A DNA stretch of 64,000 nt from Nanobdellota archaeon (GCA_030648155.1 JAUSIK010000013.1:65924-129923), one strand, 5' to 3'. Shown: positions 18,127-48,286, counted from the stretch's first letter. Notes: generated by a model from the letters alone, not told the origin. Program-made: numbers and translations.

Positions 18127-18864
18127 GTGAAAATAAAAATTAATTTTCAAAAAGAAAAGATAGGATTATATCCTAAGAATAGAATTAAGAAAGTTTGGAA
18201 TAATCCTCAAATAGTTACGACCTCTGTAAAACCTACAATAGTAAAAGATGGAAATAAAAATGTTCTCCAATTAGGTTTTTCAAAAGGAAAGTTTGGAAAG
18301 GAAGATAAGGCAAGCTGGCATATAAATTTTAAAAAAAGTTATGAAGTTTTATATTGCCAGTATAAGGTAAAGTTTGAGAAAGGTTTTGACTGGAAATTGG
18401 GGGGAAAATTGCCTGGATTTGGTGGAGGAGACAAACCCGGAGGAGGAAAACAGTCTAAGGAGGGTTTTTCCTCAAGAGTTATGTGGCGCGAAAAAGGAAC
18501 AATGCATCAATATGTCTATTATCCAGAAAACAATGCTCATTACGGAAAAGGGTTCTGGTGGCATAATCTGTGCTCTAATAAAATTGAACAATTGAAATTC
18601 AAGCCTGGTAAATGGCACACTATAAAAATGAAAATCAAAATGAATAACAACTGGAAAGATCCGGGGCATATAATCTCATGGCTTGATGGAAAACTTGCCC
18701 TTTACCAATACATCGACCTAAGAGAAAAGAATACCAAAGAATATGGGGTTGAGTCATTTATTTTTACAGTATTCTTTGGTGGCGATGACAAAAGTTTTGC
18801 TCCAAGAAAAGATTGTAAGATTTATTTTGATGATTTTATAATTTCTGATAAAGATATTAAATAA
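18127..18864 (+). CDS. hypothetical protein, possibly a concanavalin-like polysaccharide lyase (PL14/PF14099-like)
   Basis: The GGKLPGFGGGDKPGGG motif is recalled from PF14099 lyases. Composition is beta-rich and W/Y-rich. This is a tentative call. Confidence 0.3.
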   Translation: MKIKINFQKEKIGLYPKNRIKKVWNNPQIVTTSVKPTIVKDGNKNVLQLGFSKGKFGKEDKASWHINFKKSYEVLYCQYKVKFEKGFDWKLGGKLPGFGGGDKPGGGKQSKEGFSSRVMWREKGTMHQYVYYPENNAHYGKGFWWHNLCSNKIEQLKFKPGKWHTIKMKIKMNNNWKDPGHIISWLDGKLALYQYIDLREKNTKEYGVESFIFTVFFGGDDKSFAPRKDCKIYFDDFIISDKDIK

Positions 18865-32956: not shown

Positions 32957-33096
32957 AAAAGCCTCAAGAGGGATTTGAAATACAAACTTTTTAGAAAAAA
33001 GTTTCTATGAGTTCAAAAACTTAGAAGGCTATTGATTCTCAATAGTTGTCTAGCGCATGCACAATTCCTTAAGAATTGATTGGAATTTTCAATTCC
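32957..33096 (-). mobile_element. 140-bp unit at tRNA-Thr: a 23-bp copy of the tRNA-Thr 3' end (32957-32979) plus a 117-bp hairpin-rich element
   Basis: aaaagcctcaagagggatttgaa occurs at 32957-32979 and again at 33097-33119, where it spans the tRNA 3' end plus 4 nt of trailer. The intervening sequence shares about 90 bp with 43853-43945. Confidence 0.6.
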
Positions 33097-33100
33097 AAAA

Positions 33101-33190
33101 AGCCTCAAGAGGGATTTGAACCCCCGACCCTTAGTTCGTTTGGATTTCTTCTCATACAAAACTAATGCTCTACCACTGAGCTATTGAGGC
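33101..33190 (-). tRNA. tRNA-Thr (anticodon TGT) with an 18-nt intron after position 37
   Basis: Acceptor stem is GCCTCAA/TTGAGGC, D arm GCTC-AGTGGTA-GAGC, and anticodon stem TTAGT/ACTAA enclosing a 25-nt loop. That loop is the 7-nt loop TTTGTA.A plus the intron TGAGAAGAAATCCAAACG. Confidence 0.8.
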
Positions 33191-33308: not shown

Positions 33309-34112
33309 ATGGTAGTTATAAGCAGAGTCAGCAGGGGGAGCAAAATGGATCAGATATATCTGCCTAGAAATAGAGAGGGCTTGAATGCAGGAGATTATGT
33401 CGTAGTTGAAGCCTTAGAAGAGGAAATTGGCAGAGAGAAGAAAAATGGAAAAGTAAATGAGAGGCTTTTCTTTTATGGTGTTAAGGACTTAGAGCCAATA
33501 AAATTAGAGATAATTAAAAAAGTTATGAAAATTTTGATGGATAAAAGGGCGTTTATATATAATAATATTATTATTACAGGGTCTTTTTTGAATAAGGGAT
33601 TTAATTTTAAAGATATAGATTTAATTATTGTGGGTGATAAAATTAATGGGAAATATTTGAAAGGAATTCTAGAAGAAAAAACAGGCATTGAATTTCATAT
33701 TAATGGAATAAAGAATAAGGATTTGATAGCTGGGCTGGAAAGTGATCCATTATATGAAATGATGCTAAATAAGTGCATTTCAAAGAAGAGATTTGTTTAT
33801 AGGACAAAGAGAAAAATAGACTATAAAATTTTGGATTTGCATTTATTAAAAAGCAAGGCCTTAATAGATAATTTTGATATATTAAATGGGGGAGAAAAAT
33901 ATTATTTGGTGAGAAATGCTATGGCAATATATCTTTTTATCAAAGGGAAAAAAATTAGCAAAGAGAGTGTAGACACAGAAGTGAAAAAAATATTTGGAGT
34001 AAATATTGATAAAATTAAAGACAACTTGCTAGATAGGGATGATTTTATAAGAAAGTATAATTCTTTTTATGATAAGGTATTTGATTTAATTATAAGGGGC
34101 GGTAGGAAATAG
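33309..34112 (+). CDS. AbrB-like N-terminal domain fused to a pol-beta-type nucleotidyltransferase
   Basis: QIYLPRNREGLNAGDYVVVE is a swapped-hairpin-like motif. IIITGSFLNKGFNFKDIDLIIVGD matches the GS..D.D nucleotidyltransferase signature. It is a paralog of 44389..45177. Confidence 0.55.
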   Translation: MVVISRVSRGSKMDQIYLPRNREGLNAGDYVVVEALEEEIGREKKNGKVNERLFFYGVKDLEPIKLEIIKKVMKILMDKRAFIYNNIIITGSFLNKGFNFKDIDLIIVGDKINGKYLKGILEEKTGIEFHINGIKNKDLIAGLESDPLYEMMLNKCISKKRFVYRTKRKIDYKILDLHLLKSKALIDNFDILNGGEKYYLVRNAMAIYLFIKGKKISKESVDTEVKKIFGVNIDKIKDNLLDRDDFIRKYNSFYDKVFDLIIRGGRK

Positions 34113-34447
34113 TGCATAATAGAAATAAATTAATTGATATTCTTATAAGTAACATCTCTAATGCAGTTGTTCATAGAATTCTTGAGAAAGCTACTCTAAA
34201 TCCAGAAATTGTGGATTGGTATAGAAAGGAAATGATAAATAGTTTTCAAATCGCAAAAAAATATAGGGATATGATTAATCCTAAAGAAAAATTACCTGAA
34301 AAAAATATTGCCTATATTAGAGATAAAATTCTTCGAAAAGTTAAGGGGGAATTATTAATTAGGGTCAATAAGGGATACGAAAACATTGATTTAGATAAGG
34401 TTGAGGAAGAAATTGATCAAGTTTTAGAAGAGATGAAAGTAATTTAA
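34112..34447 (+). CDS. hypothetical helical protein (GTG start overlapping the upstream stop)
   Basis: ORF only. It may be a HEPN-like partner of the nucleotidyltransferase, but that is not demonstrated. Confidence 0.3.
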   Translation: MHNRNKLIDILISNISNAVVHRILEKATLNPEIVDWYRKEMINSFQIAKKYRDMINPKEKLPEKNIAYIRDKILRKVKGELLIRVNKGYENIDLDKVEEEIDQVLEEMKVI

Positions 34448-34718: not shown

Positions 34719-34756
34719 TAGGAAATATTTATATACTGGAATATATATTTTATGAT

Positions 34757-35233
34757 ATGGATATTACAAAAGGAGGTGTAACTTTTGTTAGTGTTTTTCT
34801 TTTAAGTATAACTTTTGTTAGTGCTTTACATAGCGATATTTCTAGTTTTGAGGCAAATATATTAGGAGAACCGGAACCAGTTGTAAGTATTTCAGTACCT
34901 GATAGCGTATTTTTTGGAGATTTAGAAAAGGGAAAACGATCTGATGAAATTAGAATTAATATTACTAATACTGGTACTGTTGGGGTTTTTATAACTCCTC
35001 AATTAGTTGATACATCTGAAAAAATATTTAATTACACTTATTTTGCAAGAAGAACCACTAATCCTTTTGAAAGAATTGGAAACTTTACATTTAATATAAC
35101 TGCTCCTGCGAGGGGAGAGGTTGAAAAAGAATTTATATATGCTAGATTAGATTTAATAAGTTTTACAGGCAATATAAATAATGATATTCCTGGACACAAA
35201 GCAGATGTTAGATTTTTTGCAGTGGCCATGTAA
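34757..35233 (+). CDS. small secreted protein with a possible class-III (type IV pilin-like) signal peptide
   Basis: The N-terminus MDITKG-GVTFVSVFLLSITFV has a charged residue, then Gly, then a hydrophobic stretch. The rest is beta-rich with N-x-T sequons. Confidence 0.35.
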   Translation: MDITKGGVTFVSVFLLSITFVSALHSDISSFEANILGEPEPVVSISVPDSVFFGDLEKGKRSDEIRINITNTGTVGVFITPQLVDTSEKIFNYTYFARRTTNPFERIGNFTFNITAPARGEVEKEFIYARLDLISFTGNINNDIPGHKADVRFFAVAM

Positions 35234-35762
35234 GTCATGTTTATTATTGATTATAGGATTGTTTTTGATAACCAGCTGTAGCGGGTTAGAACTGGGAGTA
35301 TCTCCTCCAGAGATAGTTTTTTCAGGGAAACAAGGAGACACTATATGCAAAGAAATAAAGATTTTTAGTGATAAAAGTGTTAATTTAGTTTTAAATGACT
35401 CCTGGAGTGAAAAGAAACTTATTTCAAGAAATATTAATGACTATAATTATAATAATAAAAAATTTGGAATAACTGCAGATTATCATAAAAGGGCTTTTGT
35501 TGATGGAAAATATGCGTCTATTATATGTTTAAGCGGAGAAAATTCTGGAAGATATTATGGATTGTTAAAAGTTAATTCTGAAAATGGCAATGTAGGCTTA
35601 GGAACTTGGCTGGTTCTAAACTTGAGTGAATCTGGAAAGAGGTTAAGCCCTATATCTAAAAGAGCTACAGATACAAAGCAATTTAATTTTTTAATTTATT
35701 TGAATATATTCTTGTTGATTATTATTGCAGTATTGATAACTTTTCACTTAGTTACTAAGTAA
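35181..35762 (+). CDS. secreted protein with an N-terminal signal/lipobox-like LITSC and a C-terminal TM anchor
   Basis: The signal region reads LLLIIGLFLITSCSG and the C-terminal anchor FNFLIYLNIFLLIIIAVLITFHL. Confidence 0.35.
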   Translation: MIFLDTKQMLDFLQWPCKSCLLLIIGLFLITSCSGLELGVSPPEIVFSGKQGDTICKEIKIFSDKSVNLVLNDSWSEKKLISRNINDYNYNNKKFGITADYHKRAFVDGKYASIICLSGENSGRYYGLLKVNSENGNVGLGTWLVLNLSESGKRLSPISKRATDTKQFNFLIYLNIFLLIIIAVLITFHLVTK

Positions 35763-35831
35763 GTTAGTAAGTTAGTTAATAAGAAAGGTTTTTATAGTAT
35801 TTTTACCAATAGAATTAAGGAAAAAGAGGGA

Positions 35832-35972
35832 ATGAAGAAATATTTACTTTTAATAGAGGATGAGCATTTGTGGGATGAGTTTAAAAAAGTTCTAAATAAA
35901 GATATTAACAGCGAGATTCTTGAATTAATAAAAGAAAGAATTAAAACAAAAGGGGGAAGAAGAGAAAAATGA
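35832..35972 (+). CDS. possible 46-aa ORF whose stop overlaps the next gene's ATG (ATGA)
   Basis: Hand translation gives MKKYLLLIEDEHLWDEFKKVLNKDINSEILELIKERIKTKGGRREK. It could instead be leader sequence, so confidence is low. Confidence 0.2.
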   Translation: MKKYLLLIEDEHLWDEFKKVLNKDINSEILELIKERIKTKGGRREK

Positions 35973-37828
35973 TTTTTGAAAAAAAAGGGCAGATGACTAT
36001 ATTTGTTATTATGGCTATAGTATTGGCTGCAGGAATTATAACCTATTTTGTCGTTCGTGGAAACTTGGGAAATAATAATGTTCCTAGCGAACTAGAGCCT
36101 GTTTTTAATTATTATAAAGAATGCATAAGGCAGGAAACTAGAAATGGGGCAAGTTTGGCTGGAAGCCAGGGGGGATATATTGATGTCCCAGCTTACAAAC
36201 CTGGAACTGAATTTGCTCCTTTTTCATCTGAATTAAACTTTTTGGGTTTTCCAGTTCCTTATTGGTATTATGTATCTGGGAATGGACTAATAAAAGAGCA
36301 AATGCCGAGTAAAGCAGATATTTCTATTGAAATTGGAGAGTATGTTGGAGAGGAATTAGAAAGATGCGACTTTACTCCTTTTATTGCACAGGGATATAGC
36401 ATTGAGGTTGACGAGGCTGATGTTAAAGTGGATATTGAAAATACAAAATTGAGGGCAAGAGTGATTTCTGAAATGACCGTCTCAAAAGGAGAGGCATATG
36501 CTAGAATTAGCGAGCATAATATTGAAATAAATAGTAAACTAGGAAAATTTTATGATATTGCAAGAAAAATTTATGAAAAACAAAGAGCCGATGCAGTTTT
36601 TGAAACTTATGCAATAGATGTTTTAAGATTATACACTCCTGTAGATGGGGTTGAAATAAGCTGTTCTGGAAAAGTTTGGAAAACAAATGATGTGATACAA
36701 GAATTAAAATCAGGACTTGAAGCGAATATTGGTGCTTTGAAATTTAAGGGCGACTATTATAATCTTATTAACAAAAAAGGAGAATATTATGTAATTGATG
36801 CAGGTGAAGATATAGATGAGAATATTAACTTGATATATTCTAGAGAAATGCCTTCTAAAGTAGAAATAGTTGGAGAGGGAGTCGATGATGATTTAATGAT
36901 AGCTTCACCAGTAGGAATACAAGAGGGATTAGGCATCCTTGGATTTTGTTATGCTCCTTATCATTTTGTTTATGATGCCAGTTTTCCAATTATGGTGCAG
37001 ATATATAATAATGAAGAAATATTCCAGTTTCCTGTAGTGGTTATTATTGATAATAATGTTGCAAGAGAGGGAGTATTTTCAGAATTGGAGCAGGATAGTG
37101 AGGAGTTTGATTTGTGCGAGTTTATGAACCAGGATATTGAAGTAAATATTTATGATGTGAATTTAGAAAGAGCAAATGCTAATATTTCTTACCAATGCTT
37201 TAATCAGCGATGCAGACTCGGAGAAAGTAAAGATGGAAACTTTGCAGGAAAGGCTCCATCATGTTTAAATGGAGAGATTTTACTAAGGGCAGATGGATTT
37301 AGTGATAAGAGTGAAGAGTTTTCAACAAATAAAGAAAAAAATATTGATATTATACTTGAAAGGGAGTATAATGTTAAACTTGACTTAAATGTTGGAGGGA
37401 AAAAACTTGATGGAACTGCAATAATTTCCTTTACTGATTCAAATGGAGAAAGCAAAAGTACGTTATTGCCTGATTCTCCAGAGATTAAATTGAGCGAGGG
37501 CGAATACGAGATAAAAATTTATGTTTATGGAAATTCAAGCATAACTATTCCTTCAAGCAAACGAACACAATGCCAAGATGTTCCTCGATCTGGAATAATG
37601 GGCTTTTTTGGAGGGACCAAAGAACAATGCTTCGATATATCAATACCTGAAACTAAAATAGAATATGCATTAAGGGGAGGGGGCACGTCTAAGGAATATA
37701 TCCTTGCTGATTATTTAGAAACTGGAAATATTGAGATAAATGTTGATGAACTTCCTTTACCTAAATCATTAGAAGAATTACAATATAATTACGCTTCCTT
37801 TGAAGGGATGAGGGTGACAATTATATGA
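35969..37828 (+). CDS. large secreted protein with a class-III (archaeal type IV pilin-like) signal peptide
   Basis: The N-terminus MIFEKKGQ-MTIFVIMAIVLAAGIITYFVV shows the KGQ cleavage motif followed by a hydrophobic helix. It is translationally coupled to the downstream giant gene (ATGA). Confidence 0.5.
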   Translation: MIFEKKGQMTIFVIMAIVLAAGIITYFVVRGNLGNNNVPSELEPVFNYYKECIRQETRNGASLAGSQGGYIDVPAYKPGTEFAPFSSELNFLGFPVPYWYYVSGNGLIKEQMPSKADISIEIGEYVGEELERCDFTPFIAQGYSIEVDEADVKVDIENTKLRARVISEMTVSKGEAYARISEHNIEINSKLGKFYDIARKIYEKQRADAVFETYAIDVLRLYTPVDGVEISCSGKVWKTNDVIQELKSGLEANIGALKFKGDYYNLINKKGEYYVIDAGEDIDENINLIYSREMPSKVEIVGEGVDDDLMIASPVGIQEGLGILGFCYAPYHFVYDASFPIMVQIYNNEEIFQFPVVVIIDNNVAREGVFSELEQDSEEFDLCEFMNQDIEVNIYDVNLERANANISYQCFNQRCRLGESKDGNFAGKAPSCLNGEILLRADGFSDKSEEFSTNKEKNIDIILEREYNVKLDLNVGGKKLDGTAIISFTDSNGESKSTLLPDSPEIKLSEGEYEIKIYVYGNSSITIPSSKRTQCQDVPRSGIMGFFGGTKEQCFDISIPETKIEYALRGGGTSKEYILADYLETGNIEINVDELPLPKSLEELQYNYASFEGMRVTII

Positions 37829-40800
37829 GAAAAGAAATATTACTAGGGATTGTAATTTTGTTTGTTTTAGTGGTTGGAGTAGAAGCTCAAGTAGGGGGGA
37901 GTTTTTCACAATCAGTCACATATCAACATAGGGCAAGCTATCAGGCAATTTATGGGCCTGAAGATAGACTAAATACATACTGGCCTATACTGGGGGATAA
38001 AGAAACTTGCCAGGCAAGACAGGACTTTATACTACAAATTTCTCCTGCTGGATGCCAGCCTGCTGTAGTGAGGTCTGATCTATTAGCTGAACAAAATGTT
38101 CCTGTATTTTGCCAGATAGATGCATTACAAATAAACCCTTTAATTGATGTTGATAAAATTAGAAGCCTTAGATTTACTGGGAAATATCCACAAGAGATTT
38201 TAGGCGCAGGATTTCATCCTGCTAGAGCTGCATTAAGAACTAGGGACAAATTACTAGGAAGTCCATTAATAAATAATATAGGGTATGTCGTGGTAGTTTT
38301 GAAGAAAAACCCTGTTGAAAAAAATGTTCCTGACTTTGTTAATGTAACTTTATCTGCTCAAATTGATTACGAGGCAGGAAACGCTTTTGGTATTGGGAAG
38401 GCAGAATTTATTTTAGAACCAGTTAGTGATTATGAATGGGAAACGCAAAAATTCAAACAGAGTTTTTGGAATGGAAGATATTTTGTTAGACTAGAACAAG
38501 TTGATCCTAATTTTGTTGTTGTTTCTTTATTTAGCGGTGAACGAAAAATATCTACAACTAGAGTTGGAAGAGGCGAAACTAGCAGTTCTATTTGGGTTCC
38601 TGGAGTTTATTGCAGGGCTGGAGTTAAAGTCACTTATGATGGATTGGTTGCTGCCGAAAATAAGGCAACGATTTCAATAAGTGATGATAAAGGAACCGAT
38701 ATTTTAGATGTTTATGATGGAAGCAGATTTTTAAATGATAAGTGTAGTGTAGATAAAATTGAAATATATGATGAAAAAAGTAGTTCTACTGTTAAGGCAG
38801 GAAATGTAAGCATTAGATGCAGTGACGGACAGAGATTAGAGCTTAAATTAGGAGATGTTTTGAAAGAAGATAAATGGCATTTATCTGAAAAATATGATCC
38901 TACTAAAAGAATAGATGTATTTTTAGATTTAGGAAAGAAAATAAAAAGCGGAATTTATTTCAAAGATGCTAAAGTTTATTTGGAATATATTGAAAATGAT
39001 GTTAATTTTGATGGGCCTTTATTTGTACTTGAAATAGGAGAGGTAAGAAATAATGTGGTTTATATGGATGCGATAAAGTTTGGGGATGCAATTAAAGATG
39101 TTAATTTGAATGTTATTAATGAGGTTAAAAATTCTTTCGAATTGTTAGATGGGGCTAAGATTGTAAATGAGGAGTTGAAATTGGATGCCTATAATATTAA
39201 CAGCAATATTGATGAGTTAAATTTAGGCGATGAAAATGAGAATAAGCTTAGAGAGGCTATTTCTGCTTTTAGAAATGTAAGCGATCAATATCCTGCCGAG
39301 AGAGACAGCAATTCTAAAGATGGAGAAAGCTGGGGAGAAAGGGCACTTAAGAAGGCGATTGATTTAGCTTCATTGGCTGGAAAGGAAAAGATAAGGGCAG
39401 ATTTAATTAAAGAATTTGTTGATAGGTATCCTGATTCAAATTTTGCTGATAGTTATAGATATGAATATAATCAGATAGTCAGCACTGATTTTTCAAGAGC
39501 AGGTGGGGTAATAAATATAGACCAGCGGTTTTACAATGTTAGATTGGTTGATTTGGAAATACCAAGAAAACAATCTAGTGCTGATTTTGCTTTGACTGGC
39601 GTGGAATCTGGAAATGTTAAAGTAAATTTAAATGAACTAAAAAATATTATAGATAGAGGGGTAGGGTCGATTGATAGCATAAGATTAGATAAAATACATG
39701 ATGAAGAAAATGTTAAGGCTAGTATAAATTGCAGAGTTGAAAAGAGCGGGGGAGGTTATGGTTTGAAGTCAGAATCTTATAATTTGAAATTAAATGATGA
39801 GGCTACTAAGGTTTGCGATAAGGCATTCATTAAATTGAGAGATACACATATTGAACAGATTGCAAAAGTAAGATTAATACCTGAAGCACAAGGGACTAGA
39901 ACAGAGACAAATTTAACCGTAAATATTGGAATTGAAAAGAGAGCTATAAAATTATCACCTGATAAAACTAGCGAGATGATTGAAAATCTTAATGAAAGTA
40001 TTAAAAAGTGGGAGAATATAAATGAAAAATTAGGAAAGGTTGTAAGTGGATTGAAGGGTGCTTGTTTCGCAACTGCAGGCGTATTGACTGTGAAGAATTT
40101 CATAAGCGGAATAGGTGGAGAGGCACTCGCAAGGCAAAAAGTGATGGTAGGATGGACAAAAGAGTGCAGTGATTTGGTTAATGCTAATCCGCCAAAATAT
40201 CCAACATTAAATGCTTGTTATTTAGCAAAGAGTGATGAGATTAATAAAGATGTAAGCTCTGCAAATGAAGCAATAAATCAGATTAATACTAGAATTGAAG
40301 GGATTGAAAGAAATTATGTTGAAAGCAGTTCTATAGGCGGAACGGATATCAATAGGGGGAAGGCGGCGGTTGCTTACTGCAACGATTTAAAGACGAGATA
40401 TGGAACAAGAGATGTTAAAATTAAAGAAGGGGCTAATGAAAGAACTCTAAAATTTAGTGAAGTATTAGGAGATTGTGAACAAGGATATAATAATCAGGGG
40501 CTTTATGGATACAATGAGTTGAGAGAGATAGAATATAATTTGATAATGAAAGATAGGGCTTCTTCAGTTAATGTTAAAGATAGTTCAAATAGATTATTAC
40601 AAGGAAGTTATGACCAGATTTATGAAAATAGACATCGTTATGAGGAAGTTGAGAAGGCTAAAGCGACAAAGACTCTAGGATTACCTTCTGTTCCGATTGC
40701 ACCTACTAGTAGTATTAGAAAGAATGTTGTTGGAGAGGTTGTGAGTGTGGGAGGAGTTTCTTCTGATGTTAAAATTGATAAATTAGATAAGGAAAAAAAT

Positions 40801-43791
40801 ACTCATCTGGCAAGCATGAGCACTTATAATACAGAGGGATTTACTGTTAATGGTATTAAGAGAAAAGGTTTCAAGGGAGGAGATATTTACTTATTGGGAC
40901 TGAACAAAGATACAGAGGGATATTCTGTTCAGGAAGTTTATAGGAAGACTGGAGATAATAAATATGAAATATTAGATAGTAGTGAGAGGGGAGATTTCTT
41001 AGATATATATGGAATTGGCAGAATAACTCCAGCAGATAGTGTAAGTTATGCAAATTCATACGAAAACCCTGAAGTAAGATATTATGAAACTGAACCATAC
41101 AAGGGAATGCCTGCGATTGTACCTTTTGATGTTAGAGATGGGTGGTATGCTGCGACAAGACAGACTTTACCTGCATTTGGAGGAATAGGAGCATTTGATT
41201 CTAGCGGAAGAGTTACTAGTTTTTACTTATGCAATGTTGGACCTAATCATAAAGAGCAATTCTTTGAGGGATATGGGGATGATATTTGCCAATTAATTAA
41301 TTTGAATACAGGACAGCCTTATGGATTCTTCCCAGGGTTGAGTGAGACTGAAGCAAAAAGAAGAGTTGGACAGGCAGTTGGTGCAATTGAAGATGCTGCA
41401 AATCAATATGGCAGGAAACTTGCAAGAGTTGCTGGAAAGGATTTTGCGGTTGGAAGGCCTGCTGCAAACATTCCTTCAACTCAATGCCAGAACTTTATGT
41501 CTCCTGAAGAATGCCATTTAATGTTTAATGTTTGTGATCCTGTTATTTGTCCTTCATCTAGATGTGATTTTGGAGGGCAATATCCTGTAGCAGACGTTGT
41601 ACAGACTGGAATAATTGGATCAACATTATTATGTCTTCCTAATATTAGAGAAAAAATTATTATTCCTGTTTGCTTGACAGGAATACATGCTGGAATTGAT
41701 GGGTTTGTAAGTATTCTAAAAAATCATAGAGATTGCTTGCAAGAAAGTTTAGAAACTGGGAGAACAATTGGAATTTGCGACCAGATTTATTCAATATATT
41801 TATGTGAATTTTTCTGGCGACAGATTTCTCCTGTTGCCAAAGTAATTTTACCAAAGATAGTTGAACTTGCTTATGGGCAGGGAACACGAGGTGGTGGAGA
41901 ATATCTTACTGTAAGTGCAGCTTGGCAGAATACACAAGACTCTGTAAATTATTTCACTCAAAGCTATGCTGCGAATTCTATTAAAGCATTCCAGGCAAGA
42001 AGTATAGAAGAGGCAGGGGCTCCATTCTGTAAGGCATTTGTTTCTGCAAAGGCACCTACTTCGTTTGAGAGTTTAATTGAACCTGACAGTCCTCCACAAT
42101 TCCATGCATGGTTTAGTGCTACTAGATTTACAGATGCAACTGTTCCTGCTACTTCACAGTATAAAGTATTTTATCATATATTTTCTGGAAAGGATCAGGG
42201 TGTGCATTATAGTGTATATATGAAGAATCCCCCTACATCCAGCTACTATAGTTTGCCTGCCATTGTACATGTTGCTTCTGGATTTGTTGGAAGAGGGCAG
42301 TATGCAACCGAAAGTAAAGACTTTACTGCTCCAGAAGGATATAAAGAATTATGTGTAAGAGTAAATGATAAGGAAGAATGTGGATTTAAAGAAGTATCAA
42401 CAAGCTTTGCAATTAATTCTCTAAGAGATAGTTATGTAGCTGACCAGGCAAAAGAATCAGAAATAAAAACTGAAGGGGAATGCATAAGTGGAAGCACAAG
42501 TTTAAAGGCAACTGTATTAAGTCCTAATATTGGGGCAAATGCAGAAGAGGCAGGTTTGCCACAAATTTATAATAGGGGAATTGTTAGAATTTGTTCAAGC
42601 AAAAACCCTGGAAGCGCGACTGATCCTAGTAGATTTGCTGATAAGGGATTTTGCGGTGATCCAAAATTAAGATGCTGGCTTGATAAAAATAGTGTGGCTA
42701 ATGCAATAACCGATAACAATGCAGGAGTTAGAGACGCGACATTATCGGAAATTGAGAAAACTCAAAGAGAAGATTTAGCTAATAAGGGAATAATTGTTGG
42801 AGATGATGTTGCAGTAGAAGAAATTAAGCAAATAAGAGATTCTATAAATATGTTAAGGACAAAGGCAGAAGTAAGCGACCAGGAAGTAACAGAAACAACA
42901 ATTCGACTAGATTCTTTATTTGATAGAGTGGTGCTTAATCATCATAAGGCGCAAATACTTTATTTAATTGGAGACAGCAAAGCAGTGCAGGTTGAAAAAA
43001 TTATTGCAAAAATAAGAAACCAGGAGAGCAGGAAATCAGAAGTTGTGAAGGGAACAGAGGTTCCGACTCCAACTGAAACTCCAAAGGCAACTGCTACTGT
43101 GACACCAAAGTCAACTCTATCTCCAGAGGCGACTCCGCAAGTTACAAATAATCCTGTTAAATTAACTCTTGGGCAGGATTATAACAGCAAGATTAAAATT
43201 TATTTGTATAAAGATGGAAAGATTACAGATATTTATTTTTTGAATTCAGAGATATTTATTGAAGATTTTGCACTTTGGATTGATAGAAGAATTGGAAAAG
43301 TGAATAAAAATAAAATAGAGGTATTTTCTTATAATATTGATGATACTAATACTGCATTAGGGGGAGAGTATGATGAATTTTTTGACGGGTATTTTGTTGA
43401 GGGAAGAAATATAATAAAAATAGAAGGTACAAAAGAGGTTATTGATGCAGAAAGGAGTGAGGGAGATTATCAATACATATTAAGCAATGAGTATAACCCT
43501 GAAAATACGATTAGCATCATAGAAAAAAGTTCTACTGCGGATAGAATAATATTGATTATTGAGAAAGGAAAAATTTATACTCCTCAATTAAAGATATTGA
43601 TCGGAAATGTTCGACCAATTGAGGAAGGATTATTTGAAATTCAACTAATTAGTGAAGCTAATAGTGTGAACGGATTACAAGCTTATTTAGATAGCAAAGG
43701 ATTATTTATTCCTGAAAGTAAAGTCCTCATTTATTACAATTTAAATAATGCGATTATCGAGGGAAAAGAAATAATTATATCTTTAACTTGA
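37825..43791 (+). CDS. giant (1988 aa) secreted surface protein or adhesin, with a Cys-rich central module and a C-terminal T/P-rich linker
   Basis: Sec-type signal MRKEILLGIVILFVLVVGVEA. A Cys cluster lies around residues 1290-1420, and the linker reads PTPTETPKATATVTPKSTLSPEATPQ. No enzymatic motif is recognisable. Confidence 0.6.
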   Translation: MRKEILLGIVILFVLVVGVEAQVGGSFSQSVTYQHRASYQAIYGPEDRLNTYWPILGDKETCQARQDFILQISPAGCQPAVVRSDLLAEQNVPVFCQIDALQINPLIDVDKIRSLRFTGKYPQEILGAGFHPARAALRTRDKLLGSPLINNIGYVVVVLKKNPVEKNVPDFVNVTLSAQIDYEAGNAFGIGKAEFILEPVSDYEWETQKFKQSFWNGRYFVRLEQVDPNFVVVSLFSGERKISTTRVGRGETSSSIWVPGVYCRAGVKVTYDGLVAAENKATISISDDKGTDILDVYDGSRFLNDKCSVDKIEIYDEKSSSTVKAGNVSIRCSDGQRLELKLGDVLKEDKWHLSEKYDPTKRIDVFLDLGKKIKSGIYFKDAKVYLEYIENDVNFDGPLFVLEIGEVRNNVVYMDAIKFGDAIKDVNLNVINEVKNSFELLDGAKIVNEELKLDAYNINSNIDELNLGDENENKLREAISAFRNVSDQYPAERDSNSKDGESWGERALKKAIDLASLAGKEKIRADLIKEFVDRYPDSNFADSYRYEYNQIVSTDFSRAGGVINIDQRFYNVRLVDLEIPRKQSSADFALTGVESGNVKVNLNELKNIIDRGVGSIDSIRLDKIHDEENVKASINCRVEKSGGGYGLKSESYNLKLNDEATKVCDKAFIKLRDTHIEQIAKVRLIPEAQGTRTETNLTVNIGIEKRAIKLSPDKTSEMIENLNESIKKWENINEKLGKVVSGLKGACFATAGVLTVKNFISGIGGEALARQKVMVGWTKECSDLVNANPPKYPTLNACYLAKSDEINKDVSSANEAINQINTRIEGIERNYVESSSIGGTDINRGKAAVAYCNDLKTRYGTRDVKIKEGANERTLKFSEVLGDCEQGYNNQGLYGYNELREIEYNLIMKDRASSVNVKDSSNRLLQGSYDQIYENRHRYEEVEKAKATKTLGLPSVPIAPTSSIRKNVVGEVVSVGGVSSDVKIDKLDKEKNTHLASMSTYNTEGFTVNGIKRKGFKGGDIYLLGLNKDTEGYSVQEVYRKTGDNKYEILDSSERGDFLDIYGIGRITPADSVSYANSYENPEVRYYETEPYKGMPAIVPFDVRDGWYAATRQTLPAFGGIGAFDSSGRVTSFYLCNVGPNHKEQFFEGYGDDICQLINLNTGQPYGFFPGLSETEAKRRVGQAVGAIEDAANQYGRKLARVAGKDFAVGRPAANIPSTQCQNFMSPEECHLMFNVCDPVICPSSRCDFGGQYPVADVVQTGIIGSTLLCLPNIREKIIIPVCLTGIHAGIDGFVSILKNHRDCLQESLETGRTIGICDQIYSIYLCEFFWRQISPVAKVILPKIVELAYGQGTRGGGEYLTVSAAWQNTQDSVNYFTQSYAANSIKAFQARSIEEAGAPFCKAFVSAKAPTSFESLIEPDSPPQFHAWFSATRFTDATVPATSQYKVFYHIFSGKDQGVHYSVYMKNPPTSSYYSLPAIVHVASGFVGRGQYATESKDFTAPEGYKELCVRVNDKEECGFKEVSTSFAINSLRDSYVADQAKESEIKTEGECISGSTSLKATVLSPNIGANAEEAGLPQIYNRGIVRICSSKNPGSATDPSRFADKGFCGDPKLRCWLDKNSVANAITDNNAGVRDATLSEIEKTQREDLANKGIIVGDDVAVEEIKQIRDSINMLRTKAEVSDQEVTETTIRLDSLFDRVVLNHHKAQILYLIGDSKAVQVEKIIAKIRNQESRKSEVVKGTEVPTPTETPKATATVTPKSTLSPEATPQVTNNPVKLTLGQDYNSKIKIYLYKDGKITDIYFLNSEIFIEDFALWIDRRIGKVNKNKIEVFSYNIDDTNTALGGEYDEFFDGYFVEGRNIIKIEGTKEVIDAERSEGDYQYILSNEYNPENTISIIEKSSTADRIILIIEKGKIYTPQLKILIGNVRPIEEGLFEIQLISEANSVNGLQAYLDSKGLFIPESKVLIYYNLNNAIIEGKEIIISLT

Positions 43792-43829: not shown

Positions 43830-43970
43830 TGAAATGCGGGAAGAAGGATCCTGAAATACAAACTTTTTAGAAAAAAGTTTCTATGAGTTCAAAAACTTAG
43901 AAGGCTATTGATTCTCAATAGTTGTCTAGCGTATGCACATTCCTTCAGAATTGACATGATCTTTGATCAT
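43830..43970 (-). mobile_element. 140-bp unit at tRNA-Leu: a 20-bp copy of the tRNA-Leu 3' end (43830-43849) plus a 120-bp element homologous to 32980-33096
   Basis: tgaaatgcgggaagaaggat occurs at 43830-43849 and again at 43970-43989, where it spans the tRNA 3' end plus 5 nt of trailer. Positions 43853-43945 are about 95% identical to 32975-33068. Confidence 0.6.
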
Positions 43971-43974
43971 GAAA

Positions 43975-44058
43975 TGCGGGAAGAAGGATTCGAACCTTCG
44001 AAGGCACTAAGCCACTTGGTCCTAAGCCAAGTCCGTTTGACCGCTCCGGCATCCCCGC
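43975..44058 (-). tRNA. tRNA-Leu (anticodon TAG), long variable arm
   Basis: 84 nt. Acceptor stem is GCGGGGA/TTCCCGC, anticodon stem CTTGG/CCAAG with loop CTTAGGA, a 15-nt variable arm, and T arm GAAGG-TTCGAAT-CCTTC. Confidence 0.8.
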
Positions 44059-44368
44059 ATAAAATTAGGGAGATAAATAGAGTTTTAAAGATTTGGGTTA
44101 GAGATTTTAAAAATTCAAAGTACTGATATTATTCTTAAAAAGGATTTGTGGAAAAAAGAAATGATAGTCCATATGATGGCAAGAAGGTTGATTCAAGCTA
44201 TTTGATCGATAATAAAAGTAGAATTCTGGCATAATAGTGAAAAGTATAAATTATTGAATAGAAATAATAAAAAATATTATTCGAAACAAGTTAAATTCTG
44301 CAAAAATGAGCAGTTAAGTGCTCTTTGATAAATGTTCTTGACTTTTAGAGATAGGAATGTTTATAAAT

Positions 44369-44390
44369 ATGTTTATACATGTATAAACAT
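44369..44390. promoter_or_regulatory. perfect palindrome atgtttatac-at-gtataaacat overlapping the probable start codon (44389) and a tttataaata TATA-like box, a putative operator
   Basis: The 10-bp arms are exact reverse complements. The arrangement is the same as at the paralog, 33289-33308. Confidence 0.45.
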
Positions 44391-45177
44391 GAGACATGAG
44401 ATAATTAAACAGGCATTTAAATTAGGGAATTCTGCTGGAGTTCTTCTACCTAATGAATGGAGAAACAAGAAAGTATTGATTAAACTTATTGAAAAATCTA
44501 TTACAGAAGAGATATTTGAGATTTTAGAGGAGAATAATTTGTTGAAAAATACAATTGGGATTTTTTTAGCTGGGAGCTATGCTAGGGGAGAGGAAACGGA
44601 AGATAGTGATATTGATGTTTTAGTTATAACTGATAATTTCAATAAGCAAATAAAAAATGGAAAATATGAGATAGTTTTTATTTCTAAAGATAGATTAGAC
44701 AACTCTATTATGAAAAGTATTTATTTAGCTTCTTTGATTAGTGAATCTAAGGCAATTTTAAACGGGTATTTTTTAGAACTGTATAAAAATAAGGTTAAGG
44801 GTATTTTTATAAAAAAACAATTGGATGAAATAAAATCTATGACTGGAATAAATGAAAAATCCATTGAAATAGATAAAGAAATGGGGGAGAAAGTTCCTGA
44901 TGAGACTATATATTCTGTAGTTTTGAGACTAAGAGAAATATATTTAATTGAATCCTTAAAAAATAATAAAGATTTTTCTAATAAAGAATTTTTAGGATTG
45001 ATAAGAAGCATTGCTAGTGAAGAATCATACAATGCTTATTTAAGGATTAAGAATAATTTGAAACCTAAACAGACTATTGCGGTTGAAGAAGCTATGGCTT
45101 TAATAGATGAACTAAAGAAAAGAATTAGGAGGCTGAAAAATGGCAAAAAGAAGCAAAAGATTGAAGAAAGCGATTGA
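44389..45177 (+). CDS. AbrB-like domain fused to a nucleotidyltransferase, paralog of 33309..34112. The track ORF starts at 44332, but the start is probably the Met at 44389.
   Basis: KLGNSAGVLLPNEW is a swapped-hairpin motif. IGIFLAGSYARGEETEDSDIDVLVI matches the GS...D.D nucleotidyltransferase signature. Confidence 0.55.
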   Translation: MRHEIIKQAFKLGNSAGVLLPNEWRNKKVLIKLIEKSITEEIFEILEENNLLKNTIGIFLAGSYARGEETEDSDIDVLVITDNFNKQIKNGKYEIVFISKDRLDNSIMKSIYLASLISESKAILNGYFLELYKNKVKGIFIKKQLDEIKSMTGINEKSIEIDKEMGEKVPDETIYSVVLRLREIYLIESLKNNKDFSNKEFLGLIRSIASEESYNAYLRIKNNLKPKQTIAVEEAMALIDELKKRIRRLKNGKKKQKIEESD

Positions 45178-45406
45178 GAGTTATAAAGATGAAATAGAAA
45201 AACATTTTAATAAGTTAGATAAAGATATTGAAGAAGGAGGTAATATATTGGCTAGATATTATATTAAGGAGCTAGATAAAAGTCTTATTGATGCTTTAGA
45301 AAAAAAACTTGGTTTACTAGGGGAGGATGAGGAAACTAGTGAGTTATTGAAAAAATATAAGGCACGCTTGATGGAATATAAGAAAAAAGTTGGTGAATTT
45401 GGATAA
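45140..45406 (+). CDS. hypothetical helical protein (K/E-rich)
   Basis: ORF only. Overlaps the end of the nucleotidyltransferase gene. Confidence 0.3.
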   Translation: MAKRSKRLKKAIESYKDEIEKHFNKLDKDIEEGGNILARYYIKELDKSLIDALEKKLGLLGEDEETSELLKKYKARLMEYKKKVGEFG

Positions 45407-45607
45407 ATGCCTTCAGGAGATAATTAGCATTAGGTTAAGAATCTCACGAGCCAAAAACGAGGTTTGTAGTCGATGAGCTTTTTTCATCAAAAAAGTTGTA
45501 GTTAAAAAAGTGTTAAAGTTAAACTCTGCAAAAATAGGAAGTTAAGTGCTCCCCGAATAGACTGAATCAATCACAATGGTTAAAAATGAGGGTAGGGTAG
45601 TAGAATT

Positions 45608-46315
45608 ATGTTTGGAAAAAATAAATACGTAAACTTCGTTTCAGATAAAGATTTTTTGAAGTGTGTAGAGCATGTTTGTAAAGGATATGCTGAAGCTAGA
45701 GATAATTTATCCATAGAGGATTTAAAGAGTAATGGTCTAGATCCGTTTAAGACCTTATTTGACTTAATCAATAAAAGAATAAGTTTTGATACTTGGTTAA
45801 AAAATGAAGAAATGAGACAAGCTGATAAAACTCTGAATAATAGAATTGGAGAGTTTCATCAAAAATTACTTGGAAGTGTTAAGAATTGGGTAGATTTGGG
45901 AATTGGTGATGATTCTAAGGTAGACTTAATGAAAAAAGATAAATCTATATTTATAGAGTTAAAAAATAAATTTAATACAGTAAATTCAGATTCCTTAGAT
46001 AAAGTTAGGGATAAGTTGGAAAGAGCAGTAGCACAGAATAAAAAAGCCAAAGCATACTGGGCTTTCATTATATCAAAAGACAATTCATCAGGAGATAGAA
46101 TTTGGAATAAAAAAGGTAGAAAAACAAACGAAAGAATAAGAGTAATTTATGGTTCTAAAGTTTATGAGTTAATAACTGGAGATAAAGATGCTTTAAAGAA
46201 AACTTGGTTGGCTCTCCCAAGAGCAATAAATGATTATTTCAATGGGAAAGCGGTAATGATTCCTGAAGAGGATATGAAAAAGCTCGTAGGTTTGTTTGGA
46301 TCGGCTCTTCAATAA
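45608..46315 (+). CDS. putative type II restriction endonuclease, the convergent partner of the C5-methyltransferase
   Basis: The call rests on position only. Its 3' end overlaps the methyltransferase 3' end by 77 bp, and no nuclease motif was assigned with confidence. Confidence 0.3.
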   Translation: MFGKNKYVNFVSDKDFLKCVEHVCKGYAEARDNLSIEDLKSNGLDPFKTLFDLINKRISFDTWLKNEEMRQADKTLNNRIGEFHQKLLGSVKNWVDLGIGDDSKVDLMKKDKSIFIELKNKFNTVNSDSLDKVRDKLERAVAQNKKAKAYWAFIISKDNSSGDRIWNKKGRKTNERIRVIYGSKVYELITGDKDALKKTWLALPRAINDYFNGKAVMIPEEDMKKLVGLFGSALQ

Positions 46316-47306
46316 TTTTCTCGTTTGTATTTGATAAAGCTTTAATTATTTGTTTTCCAACTTCTTCTGCTAATTTTACTGGAACAGCGTTGCCTATTTG
46401 TTTATATTGAGAAGATACACTTCCAACAAATTCCCAGTTATCTGGAAAAGTCTGTATTCTTGCATATTCTCTAATTGTGAATGGCCTTGTTTCTTCTGGG
46501 TGACATCTCTCAGTTTGTTTTTGAGAAGGAGAGGTAGTTAACGTTAAACAAGGTTCATCCCAAGAGATACGTCTCGCCATTCCTCTTTTTCCCCCGCCAC
46601 TAAATAAGCTCTTACCCATAAACTCTTTTTGAATGCCTTTTGGTAAATTTACCCAACTTCCACCAGGAGGAACTAAATCCAATACTTTCTTTCTCTTTTC
46701 AGAATATTTAGTTCCTAGGGAAGAAGGAACTTCCTTAAGAGCATCTTTTAAAGTTGTTGTATTTTTGTGAGGGGTAGGATATTCAAAATTTATCTTATCT
46801 TTTGTTCCTATAATAATAATTCTTTTTCTTTTTTGCGGAACAGAATAATTAACTGCGTCTAGTATTTTGTATTTAACTTTATAACCTAAAGAGGTAAGAA
46901 CTTCAACCATTGTTTTCAAAGTTCTACCGCCGTCATGATTAGCTAATCCTGAAACATTTTCAGCCCAGAATATTTTAGGTTGTATTTCTTTTACGGCTCT
47001 TGCAAACTCAAAAAATAGAGTTCCTCTTATATCTTCAAAACCAAGTCTTTTACCGGCATGACTAAATGCCTGACAGGGAAAGCCCCCAGTTAAAACATCT
47101 GCTTCAATTCCTTTAAAGTCAACATCTTTTATGTCTTTATGTGTAATATTCCAGTTAGGCCTATTTTTTCTTAAAGTAGATACACAATCTTTATCAATTT
47201 CATTAAGAAAAACGTTTTTTAATCCAGCTTTTTCTAAACCCAGCGCTAATCCCCCAGCACCAGCAAATAGTTCTACAATAGTAAAATCGCCCTCTTTTTT
47301 TATCAT
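46239..47306 (-). CDS. DNA (cytosine-5)-methyltransferase
   Basis: Motif I is FAGAGGLALGL, motif IV GFPCQAFSHAG, motif VI ENV, and a QIGNAV motif is present. Confidence 0.85.
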   Translation of the reverse strand: MIKKEGDFTIVELFAGAGGLALGLEKAGLKNVFLNEIDKDCVSTLRKNRPNWNITHKDIKDVDFKGIEADVLTGGFPCQAFSHAGKRLGFEDIRGTLFFEFARAVKEIQPKIFWAENVSGLANHDGGRTLKTMVEVLTSLGYKVKYKILDAVNYSVPQKRKRIIIIGTKDKINFEYPTPHKNTTTLKDALKEVPSSLGTKYSEKRKKVLDLVPPGGSWVNLPKGIQKEFMGKSLFSGGGKRGMARRISWDEPCLTLTTSPSQKQTERCHPEETRPFTIREYARIQTFPDNWEFVGSVSSQYKQIGNAVPVKLAEEVGKQIIKALSNTNEKIIEEPIQTNLRAFSYPLQESLPLSH

Positions 47307-47407
47307 ACTTTAATCATGTATTCATAGTTTAAATATTTTTGGTCCAGAGGGTGTAACTTTGGAGAGGTTCAAGCTAGTATAGTTATTTTAAAAACATGTT
47401 CAATTTT

Positions 47408-48286
47408 CTAAAACCACTTCTTTAATGATTGGTTTTGGTATTTAGAGAGATTAGTCTCAAACTGCCAGAAGTTTATTTGTCCATTTGGATTTTTTGTATA
47501 TATTCCTTTTTGGGTATCAAAGGTTACTTCGAAGTTACTGCCTGAGAATTTTTCTTTCATATATCTTAACACCTCTATTCTCTCTTTTTGTTTATTTGAA
47601 AGTGTAGTATTCTGATTATCCAATCTTGTTTGATTTGTACTTAAGTTACATGTTGGGCAATCCAGACTATAAAATGCAGCAACACCGCTAAAAAAGTCAG
47701 CTATTTGACATAAAGGAAATTTCTTAGAATCTACTTGTTCTATCTCTGATACGGCAAAATCTTTTTTTATCTCAAAAATGTGACTTCCATCTTCTTTCTT
47801 CTTGATAAATATTTTTGATGAAATATTATCCAAAATCTTCTTTAATTCTTCCCAATTAATTACTCCCTGCTCATCTGGAAATATAACCCATTCTGCTTCC
47901 GAAGACCACCTTTTTGTAAATACATTTTTGAACAAGTGGAAATACATTTTTCCCAAGATAGTGTTATTGTCTTCTGGAATTTGTTCCTTTCTTTTATAGG
48001 AGTTCCAAATAACAACATCGATTCTTAGAGTTTTATCTTTTAGAAACTGAAAAACCAAGTCAATAATTTTTTTGGCGGCTAATCTTTCTCTTGCGCTTCC
48101 TAGTTTAGACCATTTAAATTCCTTAAGCCCAGATTCTGTTAAGAGTTTTGCCATTTTATTTTCGATTAAGCTAACAGCTTTCAGTTCCATAGATAGCATA
48201 CATATTGAGCTATATTCTCCTCCGTGATAATATGATTCATCAGAGTAAGCTACATGAGTATGATTTTTTTTATTCCTTTCTTCCAT
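47408..48286 (-). CDS. DUF3800-like protein
   Basis: VAYSDESYYHGGEYSS parallels the YIDESG start of DUF3800, and LCQIADFFSGVAAF parallels the QIADLIA motif. Confidence 0.4.
   Translation of the reverse strand: MEERNKKNHTHVAYSDESYYHGGEYSSICMLSMELKAVSLIENKMAKLLTESGLKEFKWSKLGSARERLAAKKIIDLVFQFLKDKTLRIDVVIWNSYKRKEQIPEDNNTILGKMYFHLFKNVFTKRWSSEAEWVIFPDEQGVINWEELKKILDNISSKIFIKKKEDGSHIFEIKKDFAVSEIEQVDSKKFPLCQIADFFSGVAAFYSLDCPTCNLSTNQTRLDNQNTTLSNKQKERIEVLRYMKEKFSGSNFEVTFDTQKGIYTKNPNGQINFWQFETNLSKYQNQSLKKWF

Follow-up and report, generated by a model that had tools for sequence, protein, structure and literature searches.

The gene cluster and its relatives

We describe a gene cluster for exported proteins within a stretch of 64,000 nucleotides (nt) from a Nanobdellota archaeon (GCA_030648155.1 JAUSIK010000013.1:65924-129923); this whole stretch is referred to here as the window, and all coordinates count from its first letter. 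The window has a G+C content of ~31% and contains archaeal housekeeping genes (SRP54, FtsY, TFIIB, DNA ligase, and Nre) together with a weak, sub-threshold match to GINS. In a preliminary description, made from the sequence of the window alone, the cluster was read as an operon of four secreted proteins with type IV pilin-like N-termini. The four open reading frames (ORFs) lie on the plus strand where they had been placed: p158 (34757-35233; 158 amino acids, aa), p193 (35181-35762; 193 aa), which overlaps the end of p158, p619 (35969-37828; 619 aa), and the giant (37825-43791; 1988 aa), which is coupled to p619 by an ATGA overlap as described. Omitted from the operon of four was a fifth, conserved ORF for a small protein of 46 aa, which lies between p193 and p619 (35832-35972, plus strand) and also overlaps p619 by ATGA, such that this overlap is found at both junctions of the trio formed by the 46-aa ORF, p619, and the giant. 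The next feature of the window after the giant is a tRNA.

Judged by its relatives the cluster is real and not a chance arrangement, because at E <= 0.001 at least 1623 relatives of p619 and at least 787 relatives of the giant were found in the database. All of these are unnamed or annotated as "hypothetical"; a Pfam domain was seen in none of the listed p619 relatives, and a trypsin-like domain in two relatives of the giant. The giant itself has a 100% identical counterpart among the hypothetical proteins of one Nanoarchaeota metagenome-assembled genome (MAG). A scan of one genome per species gave a p619 relative in at least 500 genomes, and the names of 80 listed loci are those of Woesearchaeota, Pacearchaeota, Nanoarchaeota, or plain "archaeon," plus one Parvarchaeota. 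Viral contigs (IMG/VR) scanned with the core of the giant gave no relatives. In the genomes searched, the trio is specific to the Pacearchaeota and Woesearchaeota (Nanoarchaeota/Nanobdellota in the GTDB), and we found no description of the p619-giant pair or of the trio in the literature, in agreement with the uncharacterized status already assigned to these genes.

We then compared 82 related loci by tblastn with the proteins of the window. Matches to p619 were found in all 82 loci and matches to the giant in 81, and the 46-aa ORF (52-80% identity) lies directly upstream of p619 in 68 of them, whereas p193 and p158 have matches in 16 and 15 loci, respectively. These counts identify the ordered trio of 46-aa ORF, p619, and giant as the conserved unit. 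The genes for p158 and p193 occur together in 15 loci, the sixteenth p193 locus being cut off just upstream of p193; they co-occur wherever a locus reaches far enough upstream. Among the 54 loci with more than 2.5 kilobases (kb) of upstream sequence, the p158/p193 pair is present in 10 and the 46-aa ORF in 46. On this comparison, GINS and the trio are separated by a variable spacer into which the pair is facultatively inserted, and the proposed operon of four splits into this facultative pair and the conserved trio. Two A/T-rich, TATA-like boxes were noted by eye, one ~45 nt before the ATG of the 46-aa ORF (TTTTTATAG, within 35763-35831) and one ~30 nt before the ATG of p158 (TTTATATA, within 34719-34756), which suggests two separate transcription units in the cluster.

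In 81 of the 82 loci, across identities of 41-72%, p619 and the giant stay next to each other and in the same order, while the surrounding genes vary. In well-assembled relatives, the trio has GINS, SRP54, and FtsY as upstream neighbors, and TFIIB, S8e, LSM, and a metallo-beta-lactamase-fold protein as downstream neighbors; the TFIIB and metallo-beta-lactamase-fold genes are also found downstream of the trio in the window. Over 37 loci, the identities of p619 and of the giant correlate with those of GINS (r = 0.84 and 0.76, respectively), with mean identities of 56.6% for GINS, 50.4% for p619, and 46.2% for the giant, which points to vertical inheritance of the trio under strong constraint. 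It should be noted that two of the loci (L034 and L070) derive from one MAG (CAZVKQ01), a bin with two copies of the p619-giant pair; these may be paralogues or the result of a strain mixture.

The proteins p619 and giant

The p619 protein starts with MIFEKKGQ, followed by a hydrophobic stretch of 20 residues. Class III signals were evaluated with a regular expression and hydropathy version of our own of a FlaFind-type rule (a short basic N-terminus, [KR][GA], the +1 residue, and then a hydrophobic stretch of ~20 aa), and not with FlaFind or SignalP. By this rule p619 has a class III signal (KKG/QMTIFVIMAIVLAAGIITYF, the slash marking the cleavage site), and [KR][GA]Q followed by the 20-residue hydrophobic stretch is found in 110 of 120 homologues, with Q8 invariant; the class III signal earlier ascribed to this protein is thereby upheld. 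In the whole window, the same rule picked out p619 and, besides it, only one transmembrane helix in an ABC transporter. The hydrophobic helix (aa 8-29) is a putative membrane anchor or pilin-like anchor. In an AlphaFold2 (AF2) model of p619 (predicted local distance difference test, pLDDT, of 77.7), the N-terminal helix (aa 3-32) is followed by another helix, then by an alpha/beta region (~aa 100-260), and finally by three beta-sandwich domains (~aa 285-360, 388-475, and 483-594), which as modeled are stalk domains of the kind seen in surface stalks and pilins. Ten Cys residues of p619 are invariant. No Pfam family at all matches p619, and therefore no pilin N-terminal or solute-binding family of Pfam does; at E <= 1, there is no pilin family among the hits of p619 and 30 homologues, and a member-by-member Pfam search of 31 p619 sequences gave no recurring family.

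The giant has a Sec-type signal (MRKEILLGIVILFVLVVGVEA/Q; cleavage site by eye), and the class III regular expression matches only 5 of 120 giants. A C-terminal transmembrane segment was found in none of 120 homologues, and on this evidence the giant is a protein without a membrane anchor. It contains 32 Cys residues in total, of which 30 are invariant, allowing ~15 disulfides. The preliminary description was right about the Sec signal and about a linker rich in Thr and Pro (T/P), and overstated the Cys cluster: more than 20 Cys had been counted in about 130 aa, and the densest 130-aa segment (aa 1198-1327) has 10.

The protein consists of a conserved core of ~1,700 aa, the T/P-rich linker, and a hypervariable C-terminal tail. 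Of 119 homologues, nearly all keep the length of the region from aa 670 to aa 1720 constant to within a few percent, and three blocks, all encoded on the plus strand, are very strongly conserved in the alignment. The N-terminal block (37957-38844; aa 45-340) has 6 invariant Cys and conserved segment lengths in the alignment. Block 2 (39862-40254; aa 680-810) is predicted to form long helices and includes the Gly-rich segment GACFATAGVLTVKNFISGI. Block 3 (41047-42744; aa 1075-1640) is the most conserved part of the protein and has 19 Cys, 10 of them in a cluster at 41485-41805 (aa 1221-1327). The hydrophobicity maxima of the family also fall here, at aa 1253-1298, with mean Kyte-Doolittle values of 1.33-1.37, below the threshold for a transmembrane segment. 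For aa 670-1720, an AF2 model (pLDDT 68) contains long helices, parts of mixed alpha/beta structure, a single immunoglobulin (Ig)-like sandwich, and an end that is helical; the most conserved stretch of the giant, aa 1239-1421, was modeled worst, with a pLDDT below 50. Sequons for N-glycosylation are depleted, with 8.75 observed against 15.5 expected.

The boundary between core and tail is sharp and marked by the motif LFWNxHKAxxLxIxGD. The linker (43054-43155; aa 1744-1777) and the tail (43159-43788; aa 1779-1988), both on the plus strand, belong to the part of the protein that varies among relatives: the region aligned to aa 1641-1988 of the query, comprising a helical segment, the linker, and the tail, ranges from 91 to 751 aa across 25 homologues. 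In a set of 120 homologues, the sequence beyond aa 1700 is up to 1105 aa long, and the tail varies in content as well as in length. When 10 tails (nine of the longest among the homologues and that of the window) were scanned with Pfam, a trypsin-like domain was found in one and DUF4347 in one, with no further domains. Side observations on individual tails are a trypsin-like peptidase domain in two of them (P0048 and P0074) and a shared Cys-rich module of ~60 aa in five (P0086, P0072, P0048, P0042, and P0049), with the pattern CxxCGxGWFxxCDxxEC..G.CYF...C.SC....C..YP.E..C..N.C and no Pfam match. Two explanations for the variable tail were rejected. A polymorphic toxin of the Rhs or CdiA type would have such a tail, but a known enzymatic domain (trypsin-like) was found in only 1 of the 10 tails and no small gene follows on the same strand. 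Targeting of the tail by a diversity-generating retroelement was dropped since no repeat pair involving the tail was found between 33000 and 46000; the ORFs of the window were not searched for a reverse transcriptase.

Neither Pfam nor NCBIfam gave a significant match for p158, p193, p619, or the giant, and the four proteins show no enzymatic signatures, as previously described. The giant has no sequence match in the PDB either and no significant fold match, and a member-by-member Pfam search of 25 giants gave no recurring family. For block 3 in particular, no fold match was found in the PDB; matches to colicin Ia, IpaB, and IpaD are weak and generically helical. Profile searches of the PDB with six family alignments (A1, A2, A4, A5, A7, and A8) returned nothing significant, the sole match below E = 0.01 being to huntingtin (E = 0.0045), which we judged to be spurious.

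The smaller proteins and the surroundings of the cluster

A class III signal had also been described for p158. Its KGG motif is missing from the closest homologues, and a site of the Sec/signal peptidase I (SPase-I) type (VSA/L, after aa 23) is kept in the alignments of the family instead. Judged by this site, mature p158 is a secreted protein of ~135 aa, and it is probably a single beta-sandwich domain. The family has 242 representatives at E <= 0.001, all of ~160 aa, and member-by-member Pfam searches with 15 and with 45 members gave no recurring family. The start of p193 is uncertain, with an ATG at 35181 and another at 35205. Its lipobox did not withstand comparison, as the cysteine of LITSC does not align with a Cys in 14 homologues, and lipoprotein anchoring was therefore dropped; the C-terminal anchor that had been described is present as a transmembrane segment (aa 165-193). 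C56 and C116 are invariant in the alignment, and the C-terminal transmembrane segment and its K/R tail are conserved. By this architecture, p193 is a type I membrane protein with a Sec signal, a two-Cys ectodomain, a C-terminal transmembrane segment, and a basic tail.

No PDB profile match was found for p193, and neither p158 nor p193 gave a significant Pfam or PDB profile match to Peptidase_M73/TasA or PapD-like families. Matches of single members to Ig domains of the ASH/PapD-like kind (CFAP65, HYDIN, and Cep192) were all sub-threshold, and a TasA-like donor-strand fibre, considered for p158, was rejected as a resemblance of motifs without statistical support. The 46-aa protein has the consensus MKKYLLLIEDEhLWxxFKxxIxKDINSEIxELIK... 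and no signal peptide. Its strand-helix-helix pattern resembles, by eye, the ribbon-helix-helix (RHH) fold; the best Pfam match to Arc has an E value of 0.2 in 1 of 26 members, no RHH protein was matched in the PDB, and a member-by-member Pfam search with the 26 members gave no recurring family.

The reading of the four described proteins as exported or membrane proteins stands, and their joint reading as pilins is not supported. The refuting conditions set out in the preliminary description have a mixed outcome: the class III signal is rejected for p158 and upheld for p619, the only one of the four to have it, and an intracellular enzyme fold was seen in none of them. No pilin family of Pfam matches p619.

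Several features around the cluster were noted. A direct repeat of ~105 nt occurs in two near-identical copies (32977-33082 and 43853-43957), each just 3' of a minus-strand tRNA (tRNA-Thr, 33101-33190, and tRNA-Leu, 43974-44059), and the copies bracket a block of 10.9 kb with the whole cluster. The repeat folds as three hairpins (z of about -2); it is present in two copies only in the window and in none of the 82 related loci, and has no Rfam match. An integrated mobile element, as the bracketing by two tRNAs and repeats might indicate, was rejected, as the trio is syntenic and vertically inherited in the 82 loci, none of which has the repeat. An islet (44332-48286) is inserted between the giant and TFIIB, with an NTP_transf_2 nucleotidyltransferase (44332-45177) and its 88-aa partner, ORFs of 235 and 292 aa, and a minus-strand ORF of 355 aa with motifs of C5-cytosine methyltransferases (FPCQAFS, by eye). 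It is probably a restriction-modification or defence island. Upstream of the cluster lies a pair of ORFs of 267 and 111 aa (33309-34447, with a 1-nt overlap) with weak Pfam matches only, which recurs near the cluster in three of the related loci (L006, L050, and L059). Further away, an ORF of 245 aa (18127-18864) matches Polysaccharide lyase 14 (E = 6.6e-40); it possibly encodes an enzyme that degrades polysaccharides outside the cell, in what is assumed to be a metabolically minimal genome.

A possible role of the trio at the cell surface

The trio is a real, widespread, and uncharacterized operon, for which we infer a function as follows. Our favored reading, with a probability of roughly 45%, is that p619 and the giant form a lineage-specific surface complex of an anchor and a giant protein for contact with a partner. 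A prepilin peptidase would trim p619 after Gly7, and the N-terminal helix of the trimmed protein would keep it in the membrane or in a short pilin-like stub, with the sandwich domains as a stalk. The giant would be exported by Sec, stapled by ~15 disulfides, and held at the cell surface through binding to p619, and translational coupling would give matched amounts of the two proteins. The variable tail would face outward and contact a partner cell or substrate. The 46-aa protein could be a cytoplasmic regulator or assembly factor, and the secreted p158 and C-terminally membrane-anchored p193 would be an optional accessory pair, encoded upstream in ~1 genome in 5. The analysis shows the topology and conservation of these proteins; the interaction of p619 with the giant, the cleavage of p619, and the role in partner contact are all steps that we infer. 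The surface or adhesin role of the preliminary description is thus still plausible, whereas its pilus or fibre apparatus is unsupported.

Four points weigh against this reading. The binding of p619 to the giant is a presumption. A prepilin peptidase was found neither in the scanned ORFs of the 64-kb window nor in the flanks of two annotated relatives, and the cleavage of p619 is a prediction. The strong sequence conservation would be unusual for a host-contact protein, as only the tail varies. Finally, no fold match was found for the giant's core, and the model is poor over the 180 aa of it that are most conserved.

Alternatively, the pair may form a two-component, S-layer-like lattice, with the giant as canopy in the role of SlaA and p619 as membrane stalk in that of SlaB, and so be a cell wall and not a contact device. 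We regard this as unlikely, although the two adjacent, coupled genes encode a large secreted protein that lacks an anchor and a beta-sandwich protein that has one, as would suit such a lattice, the pair is near-universal and sits in a core-genome context, and no DPANN archaeon has a determined S-layer protein yet (bioRxiv 10.1101/2023.10.27.564410). The S-layer proteins proposed for DPANN are ~1,000 aa long and rich in Ig folds and glycosylation sites, and S-layer sequences diverge fast (bioRxiv 10.1101/2023.10.27.564410); the depletion of sequons in the giant (8.75 against 15.5 expected), the many long helices of its modeled core, and a conservation near that of GINS all weaken the lattice reading. 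There is no sequence homology to SlaA and SlaB of the Sulfolobales (PDB 8qox). Their stalk is anchored by a C-terminal transmembrane segment and coiled coil and p619 by an N-terminal class III helix, and their canopy is Ig-like, heavily N-glycosylated, and poorly conserved, in contrast to the sequon-poor, long-helix-containing, Cys-rich, and highly conserved giant. The match of p619 to SlaB rests on generic sandwich domains, and separately annotated S-layer genes are among the top Woesearchaeota transcripts (PMC11606122).

It is also improbable that the giant is a membrane-active device for delivery or penetration, in which aa 1250-1350, a helical stretch with conserved sequence, disulfide staples, and moderate hydrophobicity, would act as a latent element for insertion into the partner membrane, so as to open or fuse it, and the tail would serve for targeting or as an effector, as in polymorphic toxins. 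The hydrophobicity maxima lie inside the most conserved block, in a region that is helical at low confidence, as might befit a segment that changes its conformation, but they remain under the transmembrane threshold, and no fold match to pore-formers or fusogens was found beyond the weak and generic ones to colicin Ia, IpaB, and IpaD. Similarly, the sharp core/tail boundary and the one tail with a trypsin-like protease would fit effector delivery, but most tails have no recognizable effector domain and no immunity-like gene follows the giant, the tRNA being next in the window. How DPANN breach host membranes is still an open question (bioRxiv 10.1101/2023.10.27.564410). An extended version, to which we give similarly little credence, would make the trio a hitherto unrecognized contact or penetration organelle of all Pacearchaeota and Woesearchaeota: a pilin-anchored p619 stalk would present the disulfide-stapled, 220-kDa giant, and the partner membrane would be entered by, or fused with, its conserved helical core rich in Gly and Cys (aa 1250-1350), with the tail selecting the partner. 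If true, the trio would be the missing hardware for cytoplasmic bridging by DPANN. A further reading, that p619 and the giant are neighbors without a shared function, for example as separate surface proteins, is doubtful to the same degree. Gene overlaps are frequent in the compact genomes of DPANN, so that the coupling could reflect genome compactness, and the interaction of the two proteins is presumed; on the other hand, their adjacency persists in 81 of 82 loci at 41-72% identity despite varying surroundings, and a giant without an anchor must somehow be retained if the cell surface is where it acts.

Least probable of all seems the model of the preliminary description, a type IV pilus-like fibre with p158, p193, and p619 as subunits and the giant as tip adhesin. 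The conserved class III signal of p619 speaks for it, and there are precedents: in bacteria, PilY1, a large Sec-exported tip protein, associates with minor pilins. A PilY-like adhesin has been reported for subsystem 4A of the archaeal type IV filaments (TFF) (bioRxiv 10.64898/2026.04.22.720090), and like the trio these systems combine a pilin-type anchored protein with a large Sec-exported non-pilin protein that is thought to be adhesive. However, p158 and p193 have signals of the Sec type and not class III and are missing from ~80% of the loci. At 619 aa, p619 far exceeds the size of filament pilins and is 10 times that of minor pilins; having no Pfam family match, it belongs to no pilin N-terminal family. 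Pfam and fold searches gave no PilY1 or beta-propeller signal, and TFF genes are not adjacent. Neither a Pfam search of 20 of the larger ORFs of the window nor a motif scan of every ORF in it with 90 aa or more revealed an assembly ATPase, a platform protein, or a prepilin peptidase; for two relatives (L001 and L002), the 10-kb flanks annotated with Pfam contain none either. With one pilin-like protein only and no TFF genes nearby, the pilus reading is weakened, and the cluster does not appear as a pilus or fibre machine.

Other known systems resemble the favored complex of anchor and giant in part. Class III-signal solute-binding proteins have, like p619, a short basic N-terminus, [KR]G, the +1 residue, a helix of ~20 residues, and a large non-pilin ectodomain, and are likewise not encoded beside TFF machinery. 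They differ in that the ectodomain of p619 has no solute-binding Pfam match, its partner is the giant and not an ABC transporter, and its cleavage is a prediction. The p619 locus would thus present a class III signal peptide anchoring a large non-pilin protein outside any TFF locus. Pacearchaeota and Woesearchaeota have been found to share lineage-specific protein families, mostly of unknown function ("Module 98"; Castelle et al. 2021, PMC8204110), and many lineage-specific families of DPANN are predicted to be extracellular or membrane-bound (PMC8204110). The families of Module 98 have the same taxonomic restriction as the trio. The only giant family discussed in that study, fam00969, has a murein lytic transglycosylase domain (PMC8204110), unlike our giant, in which no such domain was detected. 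As far as these comparisons reach, the trio belongs to no family tested, and its likeness to surface systems of an anchor and a giant is one of logic only.

The Pacearchaeota and Woesearchaeota, which are presumed to be attached to other cells, rank among the most widespread uncultured archaea. To our knowledge, neither group has an identified component of attachment or of the envelope. The locus described here is found in at least 500 species and is conserved near the level of a replication protein, yet its products are predicted to be extracellular, disulfide-rich, and structural orphans; this combination makes the trio a testable candidate for core surface machinery of these archaea. The conserved core of the giant could be used as a marker or antigen to label and enrich their cells, and its variable tail to explore the specificity for their partners.

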